In this document: in pieces, positions 10,177 through 41,939 of the stretch | Layout of the letters: every line of letters begins with the position of its first letter | How positions within the stretch are numbered: the stretch's first letter is position 1 | From: a virus | DNA: 64,000 nucleotides | Strand: one strand, 5' to 3' | Virus genome (UHGV): UHGV-0275551 | Position numbers and translations under genes: made by a program | Notes under the pieces: model-generated | What the model was told of the DNA's origin: nothing | Databases searched by the model: none | The model's input: only the letters and a program-made list of their open reading frames with translations

Positions 10177-11058
10177 TTCTTAACAGAACTAACAAGGATG
10201 TAACAGTTTCTTAACAGTTGATACATAGGCTTTACAGAATCTTAACAGATGACTAACAAGAGCTAACAAGTTAATTTTTAAGAGTTATTTTGTAGGGATA
10301 ATTAACAAGTTCCTAACAAGTGTTTAATCTTTTTAACAAGCTATTAACATGGTCACTATCTCTTTTCTTATCGTTCCCTTTCCCTCTTAGTGATTCTCTA
10401 AATAGCCCTCTTAAAAGCTCTCTATAGCTCCTTGTAAGCTCTTTTAAGTCTCTTCCTAGTAATTACACCCCAACTATACAGACACCTCTTTATAGGGCTT
10501 TACAGAGGCTTTAAAGGCTATGCTAAAGACTCTTACAAGGCTTTTACGTGGTCTTAACAGAGATTTAACAAGGGGCTAACAAGTCTCTAACAAGTGCCTT
10601 AAAAGCATAACTATGTAGGGATTGTTAAGAAATTGTTAAGAAAATGTTAAGGGGGCTAGCATTTACGTAACTTTATAGCCTCTTTTACGTAACTTTTGAG
10701 TAACTTTATAGCCCCTATAACATACTTTAAAGGAACTACCAAGCCCTTTTTAGTAGTTCACAAGAATACTAACGAGATGATAAAGCTTACACCCTTATAA
10801 GATTCTTCTAAGGCTCTGGGAAGCTCTATAAAGGGCTTTTTAGAGTGGGTTAATATGATTGCTTAAGTTAGGTTGATAAGGCTGTTATAGAGCGTTATAG
10901 AGCGTTTAAGGGGTTGCCCTTCCCTTTCGGGTTATGGGCTTATATTTAAGTTGATTTGATAAAAGGTTATAGAGTAGACTATAGAGTTATTGCTTTTAAG
11001 GTCTGATAAGATTCTGGAAAGGGAAGGGAAAGGGTTGTATAAGGATTTGATAGACGTA

Positions 11059-11105
11059 AAAAAGCCCCATTTAAGGGGCTGTAAAGGTATCTGGGGCTAT
11101 TTAGC
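11059..11105 (-). terminator. terminator hairpins ending the minus-strand small-gene cluster
   Basis: On minus strand AGCCCC-uuaaau-GGGGCU followed by UUUUUU; second hairpin GGGGC-tattta-GCCCC adjacent. Confidence 0.6.
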
Positions 11106-11118
11106 CCCGTTGCGTCGA

Positions 11119-11367
11119 TTAGTTGTAGCCTTGTTTGCTGTAGTATAGAGAGACAATCAAGTCACCCCAATAATGGTAGTGAGATTCCTCGTTTATGGCT
11201 TCTTTTACGGCATCTTTCCAGAAGTCATCAGTAGGGTTATAATCTGGTATCACCTGCTGAATCAGCATTTTGATAAGGTCAAAGGTGTTATCTGTTCCAC
11301 CGATATCGAATTTTGCATCAAGTTTGTGGCAGCCATAAGCATTAACAGTTACGCGGATAGTTGACAT
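11119..11367 (-). CDS. hypothetical protein
   Basis: 82-aa ORF immediately downstream of a type-A cassette. Confidence 0.55.
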   Translation of the reverse strand: MSTIRVTVNAYGCHKLDAKFDIGGTDNTFDLIKMLIQQVIPDYNPTDDFWKDAVKEAINEESHYHYWGDLIVSLYYSKQGYN

Positions 11368-11434
11368 AATTTAGATTCTCCAGTTTAGGACTTTGTTTAG
11401 TGGGAAGGTCATTCCCTCCCCGTTGATTAGTAAT
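11368..11434 (-). promoter_or_regulatory. type-A promoter/leader cassette
   Basis: TTGCAA-N17-TAAATT, leader hairpin (GGGGAGGGAATGACCTTCCCC family), SD, then ATG. Confidence 0.6.
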
Positions 11435-11698
11435 TTACTGCATATTGGCGTAGGTTGCAAGCCTTTTTTCGTTGTATTTTGTCAGAATTTCACAAGATAG
11501 AACATCGTACATTGTAACCGCTTTGCTTTTGTCGAGGTCAAAAAAGCCAAATGCTTTACCATCTTTGAATCCGACAACTTCGTAAGATTCTTTAATGATT
11601 TCACCATTGAACAAATCACTTTCGATACGGTGAAACAACGCTACGTCTTCTTTGTTAGTTGCAATCTGCAATAGTGTGGTTAATTCTACGTGTTCCAT
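11435..11698 (-). CDS. hypothetical protein
   Basis: Track ORF runs in-frame through the cassette; likely start is the ATG right after the conserved SD (MEHVELTT...). Confidence 0.55.
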   Translation of the reverse strand: MEHVELTTLLQIATNKEDVALFHRIESDLFNGEIIKESYEVVGFKDGKAFGFFDLDKSKAVTMYDVLSCEILTKYNEKRLATYANMQ

Positions 11699-11800
11699 TT
11701 TTGAATCTCCTAGTTTAAGGACTTTACTTAGTGGGAAGGTTAATCCCTCCCCGTTGATTGACAATTTACAGACTTTTGATTGTCTCGTCAATATCTTTTT
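11699..11800 (-). promoter_or_regulatory. type-A promoter/leader cassette
   Basis: TTGACG-N17-TAAATT; leader hairpin; SD TAGGAG. Confidence 0.6.
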
Positions 11801-12296
11801 CAATATCTTTTAAAGTTTTTTCTAAGTTCTTGATATTGAAGGATAAGCCTTCACCGAGAGTCTTAGAATAACCGCTAGGACGTAAATCATAAAGGCAAAT
11901 TTGTTCTACATTGGAGAGGTTGACCATTTCACCGCTTACATCATAAGCTATTGATACGGTGTTTTCAGGGGCTTTATAGAACTTGTTAAGATTCTTGATA
12001 GAACGTTCATAAGCCATTTTATAACCATTTAAAAGGTCTTTAACGTGGTTGCGAACGTTTTTACACTCATCTAAGTAAATACCTAAGAATAGCGGTAACA
12101 GTTCTGCTACAGCTTGCATAAAGTGAGATACTACAACAGTAGAAACATTACGACGATGTATATAATAAGCCCCGTTTTCTGATTTAGTGATAGTTGCAAA
12201 GTGTACACCGTTGCAACGAAATTCGAAGGTATCTTTAACGGGTTTAGTCATAACGTTAGATGAGCGAATGTAGTTGATAGCTTGAAACTTGTTCAT
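11766..12296 (-). CDS. hypothetical protein
   Basis: 176-aa ORF starting right after a type-A cassette. Confidence 0.6.
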   Translation of the reverse strand: MNKFQAINYIRSSNVMTKPVKDTFEFRCNGVHFATITKSENGAYYIHRRNVSTVVVSHFMQAVAELLPLFLGIYLDECKNVRNHVKDLLNGYKMAYERSIKNLNKFYKAPENTVSIAYDVSGEMVNLSNVEQICLYDLRPSGYSKTLGEGLSFNIKNLEKTLKDIEKDIDETIKSL

Positions 12297-12400
12297 TTTG
12301 AATCTCCTAGTTTAAGGACTTTACTTAGTGGGGAAGGTCATTCCCTCCCCGTTGATTAGTACTATACTTGTTTTGATTTGCCTTTGCAAGCAATTTTTAA
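12297..12400 (-). promoter_or_regulatory. type-A promoter/leader cassette
   Basis: TTGCAA-N17-TATAGT; leader hairpin; SD. Confidence 0.55.
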
Positions 12401-12516
12401 GTTTATCTATAAAGAATCTATTAAGTGAATCCCTTTTAGATAACCCCCTCGAACAAAGTTACCAATGTCAATGGGTATTGTCAACACTTTTTTAAAAGTT
12501 TTTTGTAAGTTATTGA

Positions 12517-12858
12517 TTAACTTATGAATATTTTTTCAGGCTTTACATAGCTGATACGCTGACTTTTTAGCAGGTCATCCCAGATTAAAGCGGCAATATG
12601 TGCATAACCGGATTCACGTAAAAGCTTCATTGTTTTACTTCTCGTTTCAAAACGGCTTGCGTAGTATTCACTGTTCAAGGTCGTTTTATTCCCTTCGTTA
12701 TCTGTATGGATGATTTGCATCACTTGAAAGGGGCTTACACCCTCGCCTTTGTTCCACTGTTCAAAGTATTTTAGGCACTGCATAGGTGACATCTTATCAC
12801 TTACTTGAGTTGACCAAGATGAGCCAGCTTTATCGGTAATTACGGTTACATAAGCCAT
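12517..12858 (-). CDS. hypothetical protein
   Basis: 113-aa ORF after a type-B cassette. Confidence 0.6.
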   Translation of the reverse strand: MAYVTVITDKAGSSWSTQVSDKMSPMQCLKYFEQWNKGEGVSPFQVMQIIHTDNEGNKTTLNSEYYASRFETRSKTMKLLRESGYAHIAALIWDDLLKSQRISYVKPEKIFIS

Positions 12859-12943
12859 TTTAGAATCTCCAGTTTAGGATTTAGTGGTAAAGCTCTTTAT
12901 CTGGGGCTTACTATACAGACTAATAAGCCCCATGTAAAGTACT
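12859..12943 (-). promoter_or_regulatory. type-B promoter cassette
   Basis: TTTACA-N17-TATAGT with inverted repeat GGGGCTTA/TAAGCCCC flanking the -10; conserved leader; SD GGAG. Confidence 0.6.
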
Positions 12944-13192
12944 TTAAGCGTCTTTATATTCTATCTCTGTGCACTCACCTTTTACTAGCTCAAAGGTCCA
13001 AATAATTCGTTTATACTCAATCACTACTACAGTAACAAGGTCAGTCCTCTTCTCATTGGTTTTAAAGTCTATTGTGTGGGTATACTCATAACTAGTCTTA
13101 TCCTTAATTTCCCCGTAGCGTCTACACTCTTTATAGACTTCATCCATTAAGCCATTGCTAACCATGTTTTTTAGTTGAGTTTTAGTATACAT
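12944..13192 (-). CDS. hypothetical protein
   Basis: 82-aa ORF after a type-A cassette. Confidence 0.55.
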   Translation of the reverse strand: MYTKTQLKNMVSNGLMDEVYKECRRYGEIKDKTSYEYTHTIDFKTNEKRTDLVTVVVIEYKRIIWTFELVKGECTEIEYKDA

Positions 13193-13285
13193 TTTTTGGA
13201 ATCTCCTAGTTTAAGGACTTTACTTAGTGGGGAAGGTCATTCCCTCCCCGTTGATTGATAATTTACAGACTTTTATCAGGCTTGT
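13193..13285 (-). promoter_or_regulatory. type-A promoter/leader cassette
   Basis: TAGACA-N17-TAAATT; leader hairpin; SD. Confidence 0.55.
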
Positions 13286-13519
13286 CTAGTCTTTTTCAAT
13301 GATAATTTCATATTGACCATCGACACTGTCGAAATAGATTCCTTCGTCATCTTCTGTCTTAAAGTAACATTGTATATCATCACTGGCGGGGTAGTCTTGT
13401 CTTGCTATCTGGCAAACTTGAATAGCATTTTCTTTACTTCCTGTAAACTCTTCAAGCCCTTTAAAGTCACATGAATGGCCGTTACAAATGGAAAGGATGA
13501 GATAAATGGTTGTAAGCAT
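13286..13519 (-). CDS. hypothetical protein
   Basis: 77-aa ORF; preceded by hairpin CCCCT-gtaa-AGGGG plus U-run rather than a typed cassette. Confidence 0.5.
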   Translation of the reverse strand: MLTTIYLILSICNGHSCDFKGLEEFTGSKENAIQVCQIARQDYPASDDIQCYFKTEDDEGIYFDSVDGQYEIIIEKD

Positions 13520-13585
13520 GATTTAAGCCCTCTAAAAGCCCCTGTAAGGGGTTAATCAGTGTTTATAAGGTGAATGTATAGGTTT

Positions 13586-14128
13586 TTAGAAAAAGACCTT
13601 TAAATCACTCTCTACAATGTTTTCTGTCAGTGTATCCATGATGTCACAAAAAACCTGAATACTGTCGGATTGTTGGATACTTTTAGCAAGTAGCTCCAAT
13701 GTTTCATCAAGATAATTTAAATTTGGGTTATCCAGTGAAGGGAGACAAAAAGGTGAATACATAGCGTTGAACTCTGTTGTATAGACCTTTTTAATCCAAT
13801 TTACATCAAAGTACTCTGTAAAGCTTGCTATATTTGACACGTTATCACAAGAATAATCATCATTTAGCTCATCCTCTGGAATGTCAAGTTCTAAGATAAC
13901 AATATTTTGAGTTTTCATCTGAAAAGCTGCCGTGATAGTGGCATTTCCTAGAGCTTGCTGGATACCTTCCGATGCTATCTCTTCCTCATCATCACCATAG
14001 AGTTTATTTTCTGGGTACACGTAAAAATTGCCGTCCATATCCGAACAATTCCATACACCTGATGGTTTATCACCGTTATTAATCAGGTTGATAAAGTTTT
14101 CTTGAGTAGTACCGTGAAAGCATTTCAT
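13586..14128 (-). CDS. hypothetical protein
   Basis: 180-aa ORF after a type-B cassette. Confidence 0.6.
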   Translation of the reverse strand: MKCFHGTTQENFINLINNGDKPSGVWNCSDMDGNFYVYPENKLYGDDEEEIASEGIQQALGNATITAAFQMKTQNIVILELDIPEDELNDDYSCDNVSNIASFTEYFDVNWIKKVYTTEFNAMYSPFCLPSLDNPNLNYLDETLELLAKSIQQSDSIQVFCDIMDTLTENIVESDLKVFF

Positions 14129-14221
14129 TTTGAATCTCCTAGTTTAAGGATTTAGTGGTAAAGCTCTTTATCTGGGGCTTACTTTATCGAACTATAAGCC
14201 CCTTGTAAAGTACTTTATCAG
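14129..14221 (-). promoter_or_regulatory. type-B promoter cassette
   Basis: TTTACA-N17-TAAAGT; inverted repeat GGGGCTTA/TAAGCCCC; SD. Confidence 0.6.
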
Positions 14222-14419
14222 TTAATTTTTGACAACTTTTAAAACTGCAAGATAACCTAAGCAATAAGAATCACCGAAGAGAGTTCTACCCATGAAAGAA
14301 TCATCTTTGATATCCTTTGCAGTGACTGTTTTTTCTACGCCGTGGGAAAGAACTACATCACCAACTTTAATGTCTTTGATGTGCGTGGTTTCAATGGTTA
14401 AACCGTTGATAATAGCCAT
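14222..14419 (-). CDS. hypothetical protein
   Basis: 65-aa ORF after a type-A cassette. Confidence 0.5.
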   Translation of the reverse strand: MAIINGLTIETTHIKDIKVGDVVLSHGVEKTVTAKDIKDDSFMGRTLFGDSYCLGYLAVLKVVKN

Positions 14420-14520
14420 TTTGAATCTCCTAGTTTAAGGACTTTACTTAGTGGGGAAGGTCATTCCCTCCCCGTTGATGTGTAATTTAATCTATCTAAA
14501 AATCAGTGTCAATAAAATTT
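14420..14520 (-). promoter_or_regulatory. type-A promoter/leader cassette
   Basis: TTGACA-N17-TAAATT; leader hairpin; SD; about 95 nt near-identical to 15284-15372. Confidence 0.65.
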
Positions 14521-14925
14521 TTAGAGTTCTGCATAAATTGCGTCGCAGATGTCACGAAAGTCATGATTTGCCAAATTACGTTGTAACCAAGTGGCAAAGA
14601 AATCAGCGATTGCAAAATTAGCATCATACTCAACAGATAGCCACACTTTCACGGCAAATCTAAACATTTTCAAGTCTAACTCTTTATTCATTACCTTAGA
14701 TTTGCCTAACATGTCGACCATTTCATATTGTGCACCGTCTAGCGTGATACCTGCTGCAACGTCAGCCAATGAGTTTTTTACGTTTTCAACGTCTAAGATA
14801 ACGCTTTGAATCTTTCCGATAATGTTGTGCAATGTTTCATCCGGTGCTGATGATGTAATAACATTGATTCGATTAACGGTTAAACGTGCTTTTAAGATTG
14901 ACAACTCACGATTATTAATAGCCAT
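14521..14925 (-). CDS. hypothetical protein
   Basis: 134-aa ORF after a type-B cassette. Confidence 0.6.
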   Translation of the reverse strand: MAINNRELSILKARLTVNRINVITSSAPDETLHNIIGKIQSVILDVENVKNSLADVAAGITLDGAQYEMVDMLGKSKVMNKELDLKMFRFAVKVWLSVEYDANFAIADFFATWLQRNLANHDFRDICDAIYAEL

Positions 14926-15010
14926 TTTAGAATCTCCAATTTAGGATTGAGTGGTAAAGCTCTTTATCTGGGGCTTACTGTACAGACTTATAAGCCCCCT
15001 GTAAAGTACT
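14926..15010 (-). promoter_or_regulatory. type-B promoter cassette
   Basis: TTTACA-N17-TACAGT; inverted repeat; SD. Confidence 0.6.
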
Positions 15011-15283
15011 TTATACTAAGTGCAATTTTTTACCTTTTACTATAATGTAACTCGATGTGCTATTGCTGCAAACATCCTGATAAATTCTGCGCAAACGTCC
15101 TTCATAGTATACTTTCCAGCTAGTTGGAATCTTTTTGCCGTATCCGGTAGCAGTTTTTTGGAGTCCTGCGAATTGCCAATCTAAGATATGTTGCTCAGCC
15201 TGTAAATCCTCAAAGTGCATCACACCGTCTACATAGTGACGTAGAGTGACATTTAAAGTGAGACCGTTGTTAGTAGTATACAT
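15011..15283 (-). CDS. hypothetical protein
   Basis: 90-aa ORF after a type-A cassette. Confidence 0.55.
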   Translation of the reverse strand: MYTTNNGLTLNVTLRHYVDGVMHFEDLQAEQHILDWQFAGLQKTATGYGKKIPTSWKVYYEGRLRRIYQDVCSNSTSSYIIVKGKKLHLV

Positions 15284-15372
15284 TTTAGAATCTCCTAGTT
15301 TAAGGACTTTATTTAGTAGGGTGGTTATTGCCTCCCCGTTGATGTGTAATTTAATCTATCTAAAAACCAGTG
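15284..15372 (-). promoter_or_regulatory. type-A promoter/leader cassette
   Basis: TTGACA-N17-TAAATT; variant leader hairpin; SD. Confidence 0.65.
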
Positions 15373-15705
15373 TCAACAGTTTTGTTTTCGTTTGCTCAAC
15401 TCTTGAACAATTACAGTATGATAGTCTTTTAAGTCACTAATATTTAAAGCATTTATCAGAGAATTATAATCATCGACTAATTGAAAATCATCTTTGAAAA
15501 TGTCGCTGATTTGATAAGCTCTCGCCCTGAATCTGAAGCTCATTTCTAACCGCTTTAATTGTTCATCGCTCAACCGCTCTAGAAAGCTCATTACAAGGCT
15601 ATTGCTAACCTGTTGTGTGATTGCCTTATTTGCTAGATTATAGGCTTTATATGCCTTATAGAGCGCGAAAATGGCAATGATTGCAGTGATACCAGTCATT
15701 AACAT
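15373..15705 (-). CDS. hypothetical membrane-anchored protein
   Basis: 110-aa ORF, hydrophobic N-terminus, SD AGGAAG; overlaps upstream gene. Confidence 0.55.
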   Translation of the reverse strand: MLMTGITAIIAIFALYKAYKAYNLANKAITQQVSNSLVMSFLERLSDEQLKRLEMSFRFRARAYQISDIFKDDFQLVDDYNSLINALNISDLKDYHTVIVQELSKRKQNC

Positions 15706-15995
15706 GGTGCTTCCTCTTTACGTGACACTTTGCCATTTACAGTTATCTCATAAGAATCTAGTAAATCGCTTTTAGATTTGACAGGACTTTTAAGAGTATC
15801 ATCATAGATATTGACTTGCAATACAGGTTTTTTATACTCCCTGCAACTATTCCATAAGCAAATCACTACACGACGACCTTTTATTTTGCCGTGTAACCAT
15901 TCCATAACATCATGGCTATTTCTTGATGTTTCAATGAAATCAATTTTGTTGAGTAATTTGCTTAGATTTTCACGAACTTTATTTGATAATTTCAT
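15699..15995 (-). CDS. hypothetical protein
   Basis: 98-aa ORF after a type-B cassette. Confidence 0.55.
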   Translation of the reverse strand: MKLSNKVRENLSKLLNKIDFIETSRNSHDVMEWLHGKIKGRRVVICLWNSCREYKKPVLQVNIYDDTLKSPVKSKSDLLDSYEITVNGKVSRKEEAPC

Positions 15996-16083
15996 TTTTG
16001 AATCTCCAGTTTAGGATTGAGTGGTAAAGCTCTTTATCTGGGGCTTAAGATACCAACTTTTAAGCCCCTTGTAAAGTACTTTA
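15996..16083 (-). promoter_or_regulatory. type-B promoter cassette
   Basis: TTTACA-N17-TATCTT; inverted repeat; SD. Confidence 0.55.
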
Positions 16084-16373
16084 TCAGTTAATTTTCAGCT
16101 TTGCATAACCTCTCATTGTACGAATTGGAGATGTTAAGGCTACGCGTCTAATATATGCCTTTTTTGTGTATACATTTGTCTTTCCGATAGTGTTTACACA
16201 TGTAAAAAGATTTATTGGTGAATTTTTTAACTTCAACTGTTTATCAGCCTTCACACCCCATCTTACAGCAGATTGTTTTCCGTTGTCAACCACTTTCCCG
16301 CCTAACTTTTCGCTATGATGCGAGCGTCATCACGAGTTTTTACAGGAATTACAACGTTTTTGATAGTAGCCAT
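16084..16373 (-). pseudogene. small ORF interrupted by an apparent -1 frameshift in a 4-nt homopolymer (possible sequencing error or pseudogene)
   Basis: ATG at 16373 after the cassette SD opens a 23-codon frame ending at TAG 16302-16304; the 69-aa track ORF 16084-16293 is open in the -1 frame back to 16326; one extra A in the run at 16307-16310 would fuse them. Confidence 0.4.
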
Positions 16374-16461
16374 TTTTGAATCTCCAATTTAGGATTTAGT
16401 GGTAAAGCTCTTTATCTGGGGCTTACTTTATCGAACTATAAGCCCCTTGTAAAGTACTTTA
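16374..16461 (-). promoter_or_regulatory. type-B promoter cassette
   Basis: Identical in its core to the 14129-14221 copy. Confidence 0.6.
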
Positions 16462-16842
16462 TCAGTTAATTTTGAAGATTGTTACATAACCATCACTACC
16501 GATGATTTGAGACACTCCAGCTTTTTCTACTTGATAGCCCATATTTTCAAGATGATAAACAGCATCATCGTAACCATATGCGCCACCCTGATAACGTCTC
16601 TTATCGCATCTTATCAGGTTTTTACCACGTCCAGCAAGTGCATGTAAAATGGCTTTTTCGCTTGAAAGAGTACCATCTAGCATTGTCGCCGTGTAATGGT
16701 TGATTTTATTCCCATTGATATCATACTTAAAATTAAACGAGTGAACAACAATAACGTTACCTTTAAAATTCTCATCAAGTGACTTCTCCAGTGCGTTGCG
16801 AAAGTTGTCTTTGTTGATGAATTTAGGTGCACGGTATGCCAT
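16462..16842 (-). CDS. hypothetical protein
   Basis: 126-aa ORF after a type-A cassette. Confidence 0.6.
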   Translation of the reverse strand: MAYRAPKFINKDNFRNALEKSLDENFKGNVIVVHSFNFKYDINGNKINHYTATMLDGTLSSEKAILHALAGRGKNLIRCDKRRYQGGAYGYDDAVYHLENMGYQVEKAGVSQIIGSDGYVTIFKIN

Positions 16843-16960
16843 TTTGAATCTCCAGTTTAGGACTTTATTTAGTGGGGAAGGTCATTACCTCCCCGTTGAT
16901 GCAAATACTAGATAACCCCGTTCAAAGAGTCAAGAAAAATTTTAAAAATATTTTTGGAAA
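16843..16960 (-). promoter_or_regulatory. type-A promoter/leader cassette (first of the cluster)
   Basis: TTGACT-N17-TAGTAT; leader hairpin; SD. Confidence 0.55.
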
Positions 16961-18360: not shown

Positions 18361-18588
18361 TTATAGTTCAGTTTCTCGTAATTCTTTACCTTCATCATAG
18401 AAGCATTTATAGAATGTATCTATAGAAATTCTGGCAAAGGTAAGGTCTTCAAAGTATTCTTCTGGAGTTATACCTGTAAAACTAAAACCATCAAGATTGT
18501 AAAACGGTATTACTGTGTCATCGCTCATGAAAACACATGCAGATACGACTTCTCCAGTATCTTTGTCAATTATTTCTAGAGCTTTCAT
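18361..18588 (-). CDS. hypothetical protein
   Basis: 75-aa ORF. Confidence 0.5.
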   Translation of the reverse strand: MKALEIIDKDTGEVVSACVFMSDDTVIPFYNLDGFSFTGITPEEYFEDLTFARISIDTFYKCFYDEGKELRETEL

Positions 18589-18700
18589 AGTTTACCTTCT
18601 CAGTTAGCTCATATAAATCAACATGCTCAATACTATCAATGTTGATATCAATCTTTTTGAAGCGTTCTATCACTTCGTTGTCAGTCATCCATATCAGACA

Positions 18701-18889
18701 CTAATGATTCTGAATGGATTCTTCAAGAAGGTCAACACAATCTTTAAAAGTTTTTGTATCACTTCTTGTTCCTATCATTGCGATTGTTCCATATAGCCAC
18801 TTACCATTGCCATAAGATACTTGTGCTACGCCAACTTCTTTGCCTTTCTCGTAGTAAACAGCTACAAAGTCTCTTCCGTTAATCTGCAT
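18701..18889 (-). CDS. hypothetical protein
   Basis: 62-aa ORF. Confidence 0.4.
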   Translation of the reverse strand: MQINGRDFVAVYYEKGKEVGVAQVSYGNGKWLYGTIAMIGTRSDTKTFKDCVDLLEESIQNH

Positions 18890-27450: not shown

Positions 27451-27942
27451 TTAGTTATGTCTTGCAAACTCACCATGAAGTTCTATTCGCTTTTTAATTA
27501 CAGCTTCTTTTGCTTCTTCTACCGTTTTAAATCTTCCACAAAAGTATTCTTTATGGTAAAGCATGACTCTTGCTTTGTAAAGACCTGTTTGTTTACAAAA
27601 ACTTACACCCTTCACACCAGTTTTATTATTCTTGTATATACCCCTATTCCTCTGATTTTGTGACTTTGTGCTAAGTCTTAAATTATCCAACTTATTATTA
27701 GATTTATCAAGGTCTATGTGGTCTATCTCATATCCACTTGGTATCTCACCTCCAGACATAATCCATGCAATATTATGTGCATAGTACCTCTTCTTATTTA
27801 TCTGGACTTGGATATAACCCTTCTTAGACCTTGTGCCAGCCACATTACCAGCAATAGCGGTACTGCAAAGGGTTACTCTCCAAATTAATAAACCTGTATC
27901 TGGTTCATATATTAGGTATCTTTCAAAATAACCCTTATTCAT
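27451..27942 (-). CDS. HNH homing endonuclease with C-terminal AP2-like DNA-binding domain
   Basis: EIDHIDLDKSNNKLDNLRL...QNQRN HNH motif; C-terminal GV..RV...GK..FKTVEEA; paralog at 50517-51029. Confidence 0.7.
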   Translation of the reverse strand: MNKGYFERYLIYEPDTGLLIWRVTLCSTAIAGNVAGTRSKKGYIQVQINKKRYYAHNIAWIMSGGEIPSGYEIDHIDLDKSNNKLDNLRLSTKSQNQRNRGIYKNNKTGVKGVSFCKQTGLYKARVMLYHKEYFCGRFKTVEEAKEAVIKKRIELHGEFARHN

Positions 27943-28843: not shown

Positions 28844-29122
28844 TCAATCAAAAGTTACGTTTGTTACTGCCATTGCAGATTTGCATTTTGCAGGGTCTAC
28901 AACGTGATAAAGTACACTACAGTTACCTGTACTGTCTGGTACAGGTTTAACCCATTGTTGCTTGACAGTTGGTTCGCCTAAGTCTTTGTAAGAACCATCT
29001 GTAAAATTGTTTACCATCTCAAGTGCAATTGGTTCTGGAACATGACCACGTATCATGTACATCTCACAACCATTACCACCTTCACTCACTAATGGTAAAA
29101 TTTCCCACTTCTCTTTAGCCAT
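28844..29122 (-). CDS. hypothetical protein
   Basis: 92-aa ORF. Confidence 0.5.
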   Translation of the reverse strand: MAKEKWEILPLVSEGGNGCEMYMIRGHVPEPIALEMVNNFTDGSYKDLGEPTVKQQWVKPVPDSTGNCSVLYHVVDPAKCKSAMAVTNVTFD

Positions 29123-29630
29123 TGTAAGTTGCCCTATAAACTGTCTCGAACTTCAACAGGAGAGATATTGCCAAATCTGTATAGTTGTTGTCAAGCACCT
29201 CTGGCATATTATTTTTGATATATTTCTCTTGCTCTTCATAGGTCATCTTAGGTGTGCTTAGAAGGTTATCCCCTTGCTTCTGGTTATCAGCTTTAGTTTG
29301 GATAAACCAGTTCGCACAGTGATGTTCACCACCTTTTGTAACAGGTTTGTGGTGGCCTAGTGTAAATGTTTGCTTACCCGTATACCTGCAAAGATTGTTC
29401 AGTGTTGCAATGGTGTTCTTCACAACACACCATTCATACAGGTTATCTATTGTGTAGTGTGGGTAATAACGGACAAGTGCTCTTTCACGGAAGTTATCAC
29501 GATTCCAAAGAACCATGTGATTCGAGTTAGAAGGGTCGTATTGGTGGGAGTCAATGAACTCTTGACGTTCCTCAAAGCTGAGTCTTAGAACTGACATTGC
29601 AGCAGAACGTTTCAGATTTGACAGGTACAT
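29115..29630 (-). CDS. putative HNH-family nuclease
   Basis: LGHHKPVTKGGEHHCANWFIQTKADNQ resembles an HNH core. Confidence 0.4.
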   Translation of the reverse strand: MYLSNLKRSAAMSVLRLSFEERQEFIDSHQYDPSNSNHMVLWNRDNFRERALVRYYPHYTIDNLYEWCVVKNTIATLNNLCRYTGKQTFTLGHHKPVTKGGEHHCANWFIQTKADNQKQGDNLLSTPKMTYEEQEKYIKNNMPEVLDNNYTDLAISLLLKFETVYRATYNG

Positions 29631-29640
29631 ACTATCTCCA

Positions 29641-29670
29641 AAATAAAAAGGGAACCTTTACAGTTCCCTT
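29641..29670 (-). terminator. rho-independent terminator
   Basis: Minus-strand AGGGAAC-uguaaag-GUUCCCU followed by UUUUUAUUUU. Confidence 0.65.
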
Positions 29671-29681
29671 ATAGTATCTGC

Positions 29682-30002
29682 TTACTGAGCTACTTTCAAG
29701 ATTCTTGTGAATGGAATTTCACTTTCTTCCATTAACTCTTTAGTTTCTTTGGTAACTTTCACAAAGTTATCTAGGCAGATAATCTTCTTATCTTTCTTAC
29801 TATAGGTTAATTTAACCTTTTCAATATCTTTCTCAGAGCTTTTCTCTTCATTGAAGAGTTTTACAGCCTCTTTGAATGGGAGATATGAGCCATCATTATC
29901 ACTAATGAATCCTGTACCACAATAGTAGGAGTTATGCTATCTAGCCATAAACTGGCACAGTAAGAAAATCTGTAATTTACGAGTGTTATAAACTTTGCTC
30001 AT
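29682..30002 (-). pseudogene. small ORF (about 106 codons) interrupted by an in-frame TAG at 29937-29939
   Basis: ATG at 30002, 2 nt after the upstream stop, SD AGAAGG; 21 codons, TAG, then 85 stop-free codons in the same frame ending at 29682 just before a terminator. Confidence 0.3.
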
Positions 30003-30004
30003 GA

Positions 30005-30271
30005 CTATTTAGCCTTCTTATTACGTTTACGGTTACGAGCTTTCTTAGCTGCTCGTTTAATAGCTGCTGCACCAGACGGACGGTGGGCTTGTTTCTTACC
30101 ACCTTTGCCACGGCCTACATAGATGTAAGGCTGCTGTTCAATTTGGCTTGTAAGAACCTGTGCAACCGCTGAAGCATCTACACCGACCTGCTTTCCAGTC
30201 ATAGAAACAATTGCTGCTGCTTTTGCCAGTGCCTTCAAGAATCCAGCTTTCATATTACCTAAAATTCCCAT
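30005..30271 (-). CDS. small basic protein (Lys/Arg-rich C-terminus)
   Basis: 88-aa ORF, SD GAGAGAGA. Confidence 0.45.
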   Translation of the reverse strand: MGILGNMKAGFLKALAKAAAIVSMTGKQVGVDASAVAQVLTSQIEQQPYIYVGRGKGGKKQAHRPSGAAAIKRAAKKARNRKRNKKAK

Positions 30272-31915: not shown

Positions 31916-32473
31916 TTATTTTTTCTTACAATTGTCAAAATGATATCGAGTCATGTTACCAGCACCACCAGTCATACCACAATGAGGGCAAGTTTTCTTT
32001 TTCTTTGGCTTTTTTCCGGCTTCTGACATCTTCTTCCTTGTTTCTATAGACCTTTTACAACCTTTTGATTTTGTATTGCCTATTTGAGATTCTCCTAATC
32101 GTCTTCGATGTTCTTCAGTGAAAACCCTACCTTTATTCACAATAGATAAAGCTTTCGAGTTCAAAGCTCTTACCTTTTCATAGTCTCTGGATGATATTTT
32201 CCTATCTAGGCCATCATGAGCTAACCTGTTCCATGCAAACCATAACTTATGATTGTTTGGATACATCTTAACCAGTAATTTATGAGCTATATAATGCTCT
32301 CTAGGTGTAAGCAAAGCAATATTATCTCCACTAATTTTATCGCCACCTAGACATACCGGTATGATATGGTGTCTTTCATAACCCTTACCTTGACATTTGT
32401 AGTATGTAAGAGGCACACCCCTTTCAGAATGTGCCTTCTTAATAATTGCATTATATATTAGTTCGTAATTCAT
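31916..32473 (-). CDS. HNH homing endonuclease with NUMOD-like basic repeats
   Basis: HHIIPVCLGGDKISGDNIALLTPREH HNH core; track start 32524 overlaps nrdD, ATG at 32473 lies just after the nrdD stop. Confidence 0.7.
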   Translation of the reverse strand: MNYELIYNAIIKKAHSERGVPLTYYKCQGKGYERHHIIPVCLGGDKISGDNIALLTPREHYIAHKLLVKMYPNNHKLWFAWNRLAHDGLDRKISSRDYEKVRALNSKALSIVNKGRVFTEEHRRRLGESQIGNTKSKGCKRSIETRKKMSEAGKKPKKKKTCPHCGMTGGAGNMTRYHFDNCKKK

Positions 32474-32480
32474 TTGTATG

Positions 32481-34625
32481 CTACATAGAAACCCTATCCT
32501 TAATTTCTGCCATCTTAGCGTCATTCATTCGAGACTGACCTTTAATTTTTGTGAATGACAAGTACCCGCACACCCTGTTAATCACAGAGATATCATGTGA
32601 GTGACAAACTTCACATTCTTCAACATCAGCCTTTGGCCTGTTACCACAATGTTCACAGATTGCTAAGTCAAAGTTAAGTCCCTGATAGAAACCTTTCAAC
32701 ATACCTCTTGTAATACAACTTTTAAGTGCTGTTAAGTTTTCTGGGTTAGCTACTCTTACATACTGGATTCTACCGCCTCTACAGATATGGAAGAATGGCT
32801 CTTCTAAGTCCTGCTTCTCAAATGGTGAGATGTCTGCTGCAACATTCATATGGAAACTATTTGTAAAGTATTCCTTATCGGAAACACCTTTGATAACCCC
32901 AAACATATCTCTGAACTGTTTTAGCTGAGTCCCACATAGTGATTCTGCTGGAGTACCATAGACGGCATATAAGAAGCCATCTTCATTTTTAAACTCTTCG
33001 GTTTTCATGTTAATGTATGCCAGAACATCATATGCAAAACTATAGCTTCCAACTTCATGAAGTCGTTTACCTTCAGCAAGAACAGACAACTCATCAAGCG
33101 CAGTAACACCAAAAGAAGCTGTGAAGGACTTCACAATATCCCAACCAACCTTGTCAGTAGGTTTCTTAGTTCCTTTGTACAGACCACCTTGTGTGAACGC
33201 AAGAGGGTTAGAACTTGCTGGCATATTAGCAATCATTTCGTAGCGTTTCTTGTGGAAGCTGCGAATCATCTCTAGGTACTTATCAAGCTCTTTCCAGAAA
33301 TCTAAACCATTCTCTTTAGAATACTGGTAAATCATTGGTAAGTTCAAAGATACAGCACCAATGTTAGCACGACCAACGTAGAACTCTTCCCCATCCTCGT
33401 TAAGATATGGAGATAAGAAGGCTCTACAACCCATCGGCGAGATTACCTTGCCAGAACGCTCAAAAGCTTCTGCTACAGCACCATGACCAGATACACTTAA
33501 GAAATCTGGATACATCGCTTTAGAGCAACACTCTATAGCTTTACTGTACAGGTGGCCTTGACAGATATTCTCATTATGTCTCTTCTGGTCATAAATATAA
33601 ACCAGTTTAGGAAATACAACAGGTTTCTTGCTCTTACCTTGTCCATTCATACGAACATCTAGGAGAGTACTTGCAATCATATATTGCAGTCGGTTATCTT
33701 CATTAGACATATCTGAGTCAAGTAACCCGAATGTCAAAGTTGTAAATGCAAAATCCCCACGGCTACAAGGTACGGTATTTAGTTTCATTTCAAGTGACTG
33801 GAAACCTTGAGTTAGTTCAATCTGTAGCTGCTCCATGACATAATTATGGTAATGTTCTTTAGGAATACCATAAGATGCTGCTTTCTCAGCATGATAGCGT
33901 AGAGACTTCTTAGCATACGGTACAAGTACCTTATCAATCTCTGCTAAAGTAAAGCCACCAAATTGCTGTGCAGTTGCTGAAAGAACTACGTCACCAATAA
34001 CCTGTAAGGCCGACAGCACAGACTTTGGTTCACAATATTCGATGCCAGACATTTCAAAGCCACCTTTCAGGACTTTACCAATGTCAAACAGGCAACAGTT
34101 GATACCACCAAAGATTAGGTCTCTTAAATCATGGATATAGATAAACCCTTTTTCAATGGCTTCAAGTTCCTCTGGTGTTAAATGGTACTGTTTAAAGATT
34201 TCTTTAGTCAGATAACCACGAATAATTGAACCTTTTGTAGAAATTAAACTGCTGTCAAAGTTAGCATTCTCTCTGTCACCTAAGAAGAGTGTATCTTTGG
34301 TCTTCTGGTAGAGTTCATCCCAATTTTGAGCAACTTCTTTACGGTAATTTCTATATGTTGAGTAAGACTCATAAATCTCGTGATTAACTTCTGCCAAAGC
34401 ACCTTCAACAATACTGTGAATATCATTTACCGAGATAAGCAAATTATTCTGCTTAGCGGACTTTACCAGAATCCTCATAAATGCTGACTCAAGAGCTTGA
34501 GTAACATCTGGTGGAAGCTCTTTATAACCAACCCTATTAGCTGACTTTGTGACTGCTGCTAAAACTTTTTTGATATCAGGTTCTTCGAGTGAGCCATTCT
34601 TTTTAATAATCTGTACTTTGTTCAT
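32481..34625 (-). CDS. nrdD: anaerobic ribonucleoside-triphosphate reductase
   Basis: 714 aa; C-terminal Cys cluster and glycyl-radical motif RVCGYL; adjacent nrdG. Confidence 0.85.
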   Translation of the reverse strand: MNKVQIIKKNGSLEEPDIKKVLAAVTKSANRVGYKELPPDVTQALESAFMRILVKSAKQNNLLISVNDIHSIVEGALAEVNHEIYESYSTYRNYRKEVAQNWDELYQKTKDTLFLGDRENANFDSSLISTKGSIIRGYLTKEIFKQYHLTPEELEAIEKGFIYIHDLRDLIFGGINCCLFDIGKVLKGGFEMSGIEYCEPKSVLSALQVIGDVVLSATAQQFGGFTLAEIDKVLVPYAKKSLRYHAEKAASYGIPKEHYHNYVMEQLQIELTQGFQSLEMKLNTVPCSRGDFAFTTLTFGLLDSDMSNEDNRLQYMIASTLLDVRMNGQGKSKKPVVFPKLVYIYDQKRHNENICQGHLYSKAIECCSKAMYPDFLSVSGHGAVAEAFERSGKVISPMGCRAFLSPYLNEDGEEFYVGRANIGAVSLNLPMIYQYSKENGLDFWKELDKYLEMIRSFHKKRYEMIANMPASSNPLAFTQGGLYKGTKKPTDKVGWDIVKSFTASFGVTALDELSVLAEGKRLHEVGSYSFAYDVLAYINMKTEEFKNEDGFLYAVYGTPAESLCGTQLKQFRDMFGVIKGVSDKEYFTNSFHMNVAADISPFEKQDLEEPFFHICRGGRIQYVRVANPENLTALKSCITRGMLKGFYQGLNFDLAICEHCGNRPKADVEECEVCHSHDISVINRVCGYLSFTKIKGQSRMNDAKMAEIKDRVSM

Positions 34626-40909: not shown

Positions 40910-41939
40910 TCATACACGGCTCCCAATTATATTTCTTGAAAGAGAAATTGTCTTTTGGATTTCTCTCTTGATATGCTATCCAGAAATGCTGTTCCATTAA
41001 CTCTAATGGTGTTTTGGTAACAGTCTGTCCATCCCATGATACATAGGTATAAGAATCTTTTTTAGCATAAAGTTCATAGATAGCGTCAAGACACTCTTTG
41101 TAGGTCTCTTTACCCTCTAAAGCATTCATCACAGCTACTTTACCAGCACCTTTTAGGCCGAAGTAGTTGTCTGCATTATCTCCAGCAACAGCCTGATAAC
41201 ACAAGAATTTAAAACCTACGCCAACTGTTTTTGCAGCTTTTGGTTTTGATTTGATAGGGCAATCCCAGATATCACCAACATTATTGTCAGCAATAAAAAT
41301 TAGTGGTGACTTTTCATAAGTCATATCAATACAATAAGTTCCTTCAGCTTGTCGAAGGTCTTTGTCAATACTCATAAGAGCAGCTTTCTTACCCATCTTT
41401 TCAGCTTTAGCGATTACGATTGAATCGGCTTCGAAGCCCCCCTTTAAGAGCTTAAACTCTGGTCTTGACAGAAGGTATTCACGACAAGCAACTAAGTGTG
41501 TTGGTGTGACAGCATCTTTACGGTTGCCTTGATATTGGTGCTCAAGACCTTTAACGTCTTTATGTTTATGCACACCTTTCTCTGTTAAATAGCCTACCCA
41601 AGTTCTCTCTTTCCCAACAACCTTAAGCCATTCCTGAAGCACCTGTTGAGTAGCCATGATAGCTTCTTTTTCACTCTTAGCTTCTTTCCAAGTCTGTCTT
41701 TCCCATTCATCTTCATCAAATGTCAGGCCAAGCTCTTCCACAAGGATTCTCTGGTCTGCTAACCATCTTGCAGCATCTTTCGCATTATCAAATGGTTCAG
41801 ATTCTTCTGCTGTGAGTTTATTAACGTATTTATACTTTGCTTTCTCAACTACACAAGCACCTTTATAGGCAATGCTGTCAGAGTCAATAAAGACATGTGT
41901 AACTGAATCGGGAAGCTTTGTTAATGTGTACTTCTCCAT
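40899..41939 (-). CDS. 5'-3' exonuclease / flap endonuclease
   Basis: N-terminal FIDSDSIAYKGA and H3TH-like GVGFKF...AGDNADNYFGLKGAG. Confidence 0.7.
   Translation of the reverse strand: MEKYTLTKLPDSVTHVFIDSDSIAYKGACVVEKAKYKYVNKLTAEESEPFDNAKDAARWLADQRILVEELGLTFDEDEWERQTWKEAKSEKEAIMATQQVLQEWLKVVGKERTWVGYLTEKGVHKHKDVKGLEHQYQGNRKDAVTPTHLVACREYLLSRPEFKLLKGGFEADSIVIAKAEKMGKKAALMSIDKDLRQAEGTYCIDMTYEKSPLIFIADNNVGDIWDCPIKSKPKAAKTVGVGFKFLCYQAVAGDNADNYFGLKGAGKVAVMNALEGKETYKECLDAIYELYAKKDSYTYVSWDGQTVTKTPLELMEQHFWIAYQERNPKDNFSFKKYNWEPCMNED

Follow-up and report, generated by a model that had tools for sequence, protein, structure and literature searches.

In the classical amber mutants of coliphages T4 and lambda (the am alleles), a one-base change converts a sense codon to TAG in an otherwise intact gene, and a truncated product is made in cells that lack a suppressor tRNA. 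In-frame TAG codons in conserved genes are also found in the TAG-recoded crAss-like and Lak phages, where TAG is read as glutamine by a suppressor tRNA. In these phages the late genes contain many in-frame TAGs, TAG is avoided as a stop, and a CUA tRNA is encoded. The gene described below belongs to DUF7390/PHROG 4462, a family found in Felix O1-like, Pseudomonas PAK_P1-like and Pectobacterium phages, none of whose members has a known function. The same gene has been inactivated in two other isolates. In Escherichia phage HY02 (NC_028872.1, 1193..1356) a 210-nt in-frame deletion leaves 36 codons, and no CDS is annotated at the deleted gene. In ST11 (MF370225.1, 801..1117) the gene carries a 1-nt deletion; ST11 also has a split nrdG and may simply be a lower-quality sequence.

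The window analysed here is a stretch of 64,000 nt from virus genome UHGV-0275551, which is a Felixounavirus. The closest relative is Escherichia phage fjerdesal, with ∼95% identity over the whole window and 99% locally. In total, 226 phage records match the region, and nearly all are from Felixounavirus, the Felix O1-like myoviruses that infect Escherichia, Salmonella and Shigella. Look-ups of five window proteins gave either relatives at 92–95% identity or no record; exact copies of window proteins occur in Logan contigs of 37,345 and 37,537 nt, and E. coli genomes and plasmids gave no match. The locus has nrdD, nrdG, PRPP synthetase and NAMPT as neighbour genes and comprises the following features:

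30005..30271, minus strand: the 88-codon upstream gene (phrog_4425), ending with TAG at 30007..30005
30013..30019, minus strand: Shine-Dalgarno-like AAGAAGG inside the end of the upstream gene, read from the sequence
29682..30002, minus strand: the DUF7390/phrog_4462 gene, 106 codons plus TAA, with TAG at codon 22
29940..30002, minus strand: the 21 codons that would still be translatable, MSKVYNTRKLQIFLLCQFMAR (sequence and AlphaFold model)
29937..29939, minus strand: in-frame amber TAG at codon 22 (ortholog comparison)
29685..29936, minus strand: 84 sense codons stranded 3′ of the TAG, with the frame open (sequence reading)
29638..29670, minus strand: intrinsic-terminator-like hairpin with a 9-bp stem and a 5-nt loop, plus a T tract (pattern)

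The original prediction described a 106-codon frame interrupted by a TAG at codon 22, and direct reading of the minus strand confirmed this. The frame runs from an ATG (30002..30000) to a TAA (29684..29682), and the TAG (29939..29937) is its sole interruption. The ATG was also correctly placed 2 nt after the upstream stop, as the junction reads TAG-TC-ATG with only the bases TC in between. The Shine-Dalgarno sequence that had been proposed is present as AAGAAGG, but it lies 10 nt 5′ of the ATG, which is at the long end of normal spacing. With stop and start this close and a Shine-Dalgarno-like element within the upstream gene, the predicted layout is that of a coupled gene pair, and all relatives compared share this layout. 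The terminator reported just past the stop was likewise found. Its stem (29670..29648), followed by TTTATTTT, lies directly 3′ of the TAA; the hairpin is kept in relatives and, judged by its pattern, is real. The stretch after the TAG is indeed open, but it measures 84 codons and not the 85 first given. From the base composition we computed a chance of ∼0.003 for 84 open codons, which is unlikely, although with an ortholog comparison at hand such an estimate is unnecessary.

The window and 15 orthologs were compared base by base. Among the orthologs, four are intact 321-nt CDSs in GenBank records and ten are called genes on contigs; these ten contigs all carry an identical upstream protein, and each has an intact 106-residue DUF7390 gene. 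Named orthologs are fjerdesal_65, EcoM2_00033, SP010_00100 and JLBYU32_144. In all 15 orthologs the 106 codons are uninterrupted, and codon 22 is GAG or GAA. At base 29939 all 15 relatives have G on the coding strand, and the window has T, which converts GAG (Glu) to TAG. No other base of the gene is private to the window, and the fjerdesal gene is identical at every other position. The 81 nt around the TAG had no exact match in any of 235 related phage records. A search for the exact TAG pattern in viral, metagenome and genome contig collections did not find it, and a degenerate control pattern recovered a viral contig carrying GAG. As the orthologs all have a sense codon at this position, base 29939 is the sole private base and no record matches, the TAG is, by this comparison, a single lineage-private nonsense substitution. 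It had been considered that orthologs might lack the downstream frame entirely. The alignment shows the frame in every ortholog, in support of a real gene of the translationally coupled type that is broken by one TAG.

Its distribution and substitution pattern in relatives indicate a genuine protein-coding gene that is kept by purifying selection. A tblastn search found it in 264 of 266 matching Ounavirinae records, down to 41–52% identity. Orthologs identical to the window except at codon 22 score 57.6–61.9 bits against Pfam DUF7390 (gathering cut-off 28.4), and the PHROG assignment is phrog_4462. The match of the repaired or orthologous sequence to the family extends over the whole length. 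We obtained dN/dS values of 0.08–0.11 against the SP-010 and JLBYU32 orthologs, and of ∼0.07–0.10 across orthologs for the part 3′ of the TAG site. The viable HY02, with its 210-nt in-frame deletion, demonstrates that the gene is dispensable. Thus, it is selected in nature, yet can be lost without killing the phage.

An AlphaFold model built from an alignment of 25 family members was confident (pLDDT 86, pTM 0.79). The predicted fold has an N-terminal helix (residues 8–23), a small beta-sheet and three further helices, and the 21-residue stub covers only the first helix. Codon 22 is not invariant across the family, where it encodes E or K. Matches to the predicted fold in BFVD were solely other uncharacterised DUF7390 proteins, a profile search against PDB sequences gave no significant match (sole hit E=0.14), and we found no papers on DUF7390. 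Several records carry the legacy annotation HNH endonuclease for this gene. We could not support this label, finding neither an HNH motif nor an HNH profile match; there is no invariant histidine in the alignment of 25 family members. The gene just downstream (phrog_3500, 171 residues, window 29115..29630, minus strand) weakly matches an HNH-endonuclease PHROG (E=1.4e-6) and includes the stretch GHHKP...GGEHH...N. Some records of the DUF7390 gene may have taken over their HNH label from this neighbouring gene.

When ∼100 fjerdesal ORFs were mapped onto the window, no frameshifts were seen and two genes had in-frame stops. In addition to the DUF7390 gene, the following gene is interrupted:

18566..18889, minus strand: second interrupted small gene (phrog_4453), with TAG at codon 63, 18703..18701

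It is the ortholog of fjerdesal_49 and of wV8 gene 9 and had no Pfam match. At 18703..18701, a private change at base 18702 has replaced a conserved TGG (Trp) by TAG, and none of 232 phage records matches the surrounding 61 nt exactly. Five codons past this TAG lies an in-frame ATG that could give a 40-residue C-terminal fragment. A further private change, at base 30005, affects the stop of the gene upstream of DUF7390, which is TAG here and TAA in all 15 relatives. It is the third private change that creates a TAG and lies 66 nt from the codon-22 amber; if this TAG (30005..30007, minus strand) were read through, just two residues would be added before a TGA.

Some other differences from fjerdesal were seen in the window. 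Orthologs of fjerdesal_50 (34191..34499) and fjerdesal_60 (41212..41556) are absent, the former at the 18904/18881 junction and the latter at about 25604. Small accessory genes thus vary in presence and absence. Two homing-endonuclease-like ORFs (27451..27942 and 31916..32524, minus strand) are inserted here relative to fjerdesal, which lacks them. HNH_3 and AP2 domains are present in one; the other combines a NUMOD3 motif with weak similarity to a colicin/pyocin DNase domain. The second of these ORFs shares 44 nt with the 3′ end of nrdD, and a collection of 15 billion proteins held no exact copy of its product. Between the small early genes at ∼11600..16900 there are many short repeated intergenic elements (∼70–120 nt, 84–97% identity) with multiple cross-matches to fjerdesal 27.0–31.8 kb. 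They are probably promoter or terminator modules.

Three causes had been offered for the in-frame TAG: an amber mutation, a sequencing error and stop-codon readthrough. The amber mutation fits best, as a single G to T change from GAG to TAG is found in this genome only, and we consider it likely that the TAG is a recent, genuine nonsense allele, produced by a G to T transversion in a conserved but dispensable accessory gene. If the TAG came from an error in sequencing or assembly, or from a minority variant that entered the consensus, the phage would really have GAG and an intact gene. We regard this as possible but rather unlikely. The codon-22 TAG is a one-base difference from otherwise identical relatives and was found in no other sequence searched, just as an error would be, but the rest of the window is clean, with ∼100 genes free of frameshifts. 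Within 5178 nt around the locus, the part covered by at least 10 relatives, we counted 17 private window substitutions, 14 of them coding. These comprise seven synonymous changes, one stop-to-stop change (TAA to TAG, 30005), five missense changes and one nonsense change, where random expectation is 21% synonymous and 4.8% nonsense. This enrichment for synonymous changes looks like natural divergence and unlike a noisy assembly. Extrapolating roughly from the synonymous private substitutions, a few hundred mutational events would have occurred in the window, ∼20 of them nonsense, so that two nonsense survivors in dispensable genes are unremarkable. The second amber also argues against an error. 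The recorded source of its truncated 62-residue product is a Logan contig of 37,345 nt, and 37,345 nt is also the length listed for a Logan contig with the window's exact NrdD and NrdA. We infer that all three proteins lie on one Logan contig, and the record suggests that public reads, assembled a second time, gave the same base at the 18702 site. Chemical mutagenesis was rejected as a source because the spectrum of private substitutions is mixed, and a basecalling artefact at methylation motifs because the changed sites contain no GATC or CCWGG.

The amber codons could also be real but read through, in a suppressing host (e.g., supE or supF), in a host lacking RF1, or by a phage tRNA mutated to CUA. 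supE is carried by many laboratory hosts. One base separates the anticodons of the Felixounavirus tRNAs Gln(CUG), Lys(CUU), Leu(CAA) and Tyr(GUA) from CUA. Both private in-frame stops in the window are TAG, and the second of them, together with the private TAA to TAG change 66 nt upstream, hints at amber tolerance. As codon 22 varies in the family, another residue there might be accepted. The phages known to grow on the RF1-deleted strain Syn61-delta-3 include Felixounaviruses (PMC12269064). We still judge readthrough of this kind to be quite unlikely. That both stops are TAG is not significant (p ∼0.13), as TAG accounts for 34–38% of the one-step nonsense paths with this codon usage. There are no tRNA genes in the 64-kb window, and the phage's tRNA cluster lies just left of position 1, at the counterpart of fjerdesal 10340–15247; none of 21 related Felixounavirus tRNA clusters, with 23–26 tRNAs each, has a CUA, UUA or UCA anticodon. 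Both TAGs are followed by a pyrimidine (TAG-C and TAG-T), which is a poor context for tRNA suppression. Bossi and Miller reportedly described such context effects at amber codons, with a 3′ pyrimidine being poor for suppression. TAG is also not depleted as a stop, and in one gene it has even replaced TAA. It terminates 10 of the 102 predicted ORFs in the window, compared with 12 of 130 in fjerdesal; one of the ten is the truncated second amber gene, and nine are ordinary, including nrdD, nrdA and PRPP synthetase. As TAG ends nine other ORFs, in the same proportion as in fjerdesal, the genome is, by its stop codon usage, not recoded for TAG. We consider it very unlikely that the lineage propagates under amber suppression, be it with one of its own roughly 26 tRNAs changed to CUA or in a suppressor or RF1-deficient host. 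If it did, both TAGs (29939..29937 and 18703..18701) would be read through and both genes would be partly functional. Host-dependent suppression is possible, but nothing that we found supports suppression. A programmed readthrough or recoding signal, by which one gene would have evolved to give a short and a long product, has the open downstream frame and the +4 base C as its only support and is hardly credible. The stop is absent in every ortholog examined, so selection has not maintained it, and other genes in the window end normally with TAG; we therefore rejected this form of the readthrough that had been proposed. The frame is intact past the TAG, and the downstream 84 codons could be imagined to have an internal or non-canonical start of their own and to yield a shortened functional protein. 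This is highly improbable. The sequence scan found no in-frame ATG, GTG or TTG 3′ of the codon-22 TAG before a GTG at 29762, and this first canonical start would give just 26 residues. Moreover, a product without residues 1–22 loses eight of the 19 invariant positions (the initiator M1, N6, T7, R8, Q11, I12, L15 and M19), along with the nearly invariant F18 and the first helix.

Taken together, we favour a genuine nonsense allele. One G to T transversion in the phage lineage would have turned codon 22 from GAG (Glu) into TAG. In an ordinary host, ribosomes should still initiate at the coupled ATG, as the start context is unchanged, and release factor 1 would terminate translation after 21 residues. 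As the stub retains no more of the alpha/beta domain than its first helix, the protein is presumably lost and the allele null. Genes downstream would be unaffected by the TAG, since the gene is the last before the intrinsic terminator, and the phage would tolerate the loss under its growth conditions because the gene is dispensable. As the gene is complete apart from one base, the event appears to be very recent and reversible.

This event is an ordinary knock-out without a recoding signal, and as such a kind of feature that is already known. It resembles the am alleles of T4 and lambda in that an otherwise intact gene has a one-base sense to TAG change, with truncation of the product unless a suppressor tRNA is present. 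Unlike those alleles, the TAG in the window arose spontaneously in a non-essential accessory gene, and there is no sign of selection in a suppressor host. The losses in HY02 and ST11 are deletions, whereas the copy in the window is complete save one base. An in-frame TAG in a conserved gene is all that the locus shares with the recoded crAss-like and Lak phages, as there are two private TAGs here, TAG is used as a stop in the normal way, and neither the window nor any of 21 relatives has a suppressor tRNA.

An annotation of the locus should name a DUF7390 gene that an amber codon disrupts, as a pseudogene or null allele, and should avoid the labels 21-codon peptide, recoding site and "HNH endonuclease". 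The finding would give new insight into how phage genes are decoded only if amber suppression were shown. Together, the TAG allele and the HY02 deletion are natural evidence that a widely conserved Ounavirinae gene is dispensable, which is of use in choosing neutral engineering sites in Felix O1-like phages and in assigning a function to DUF7390.
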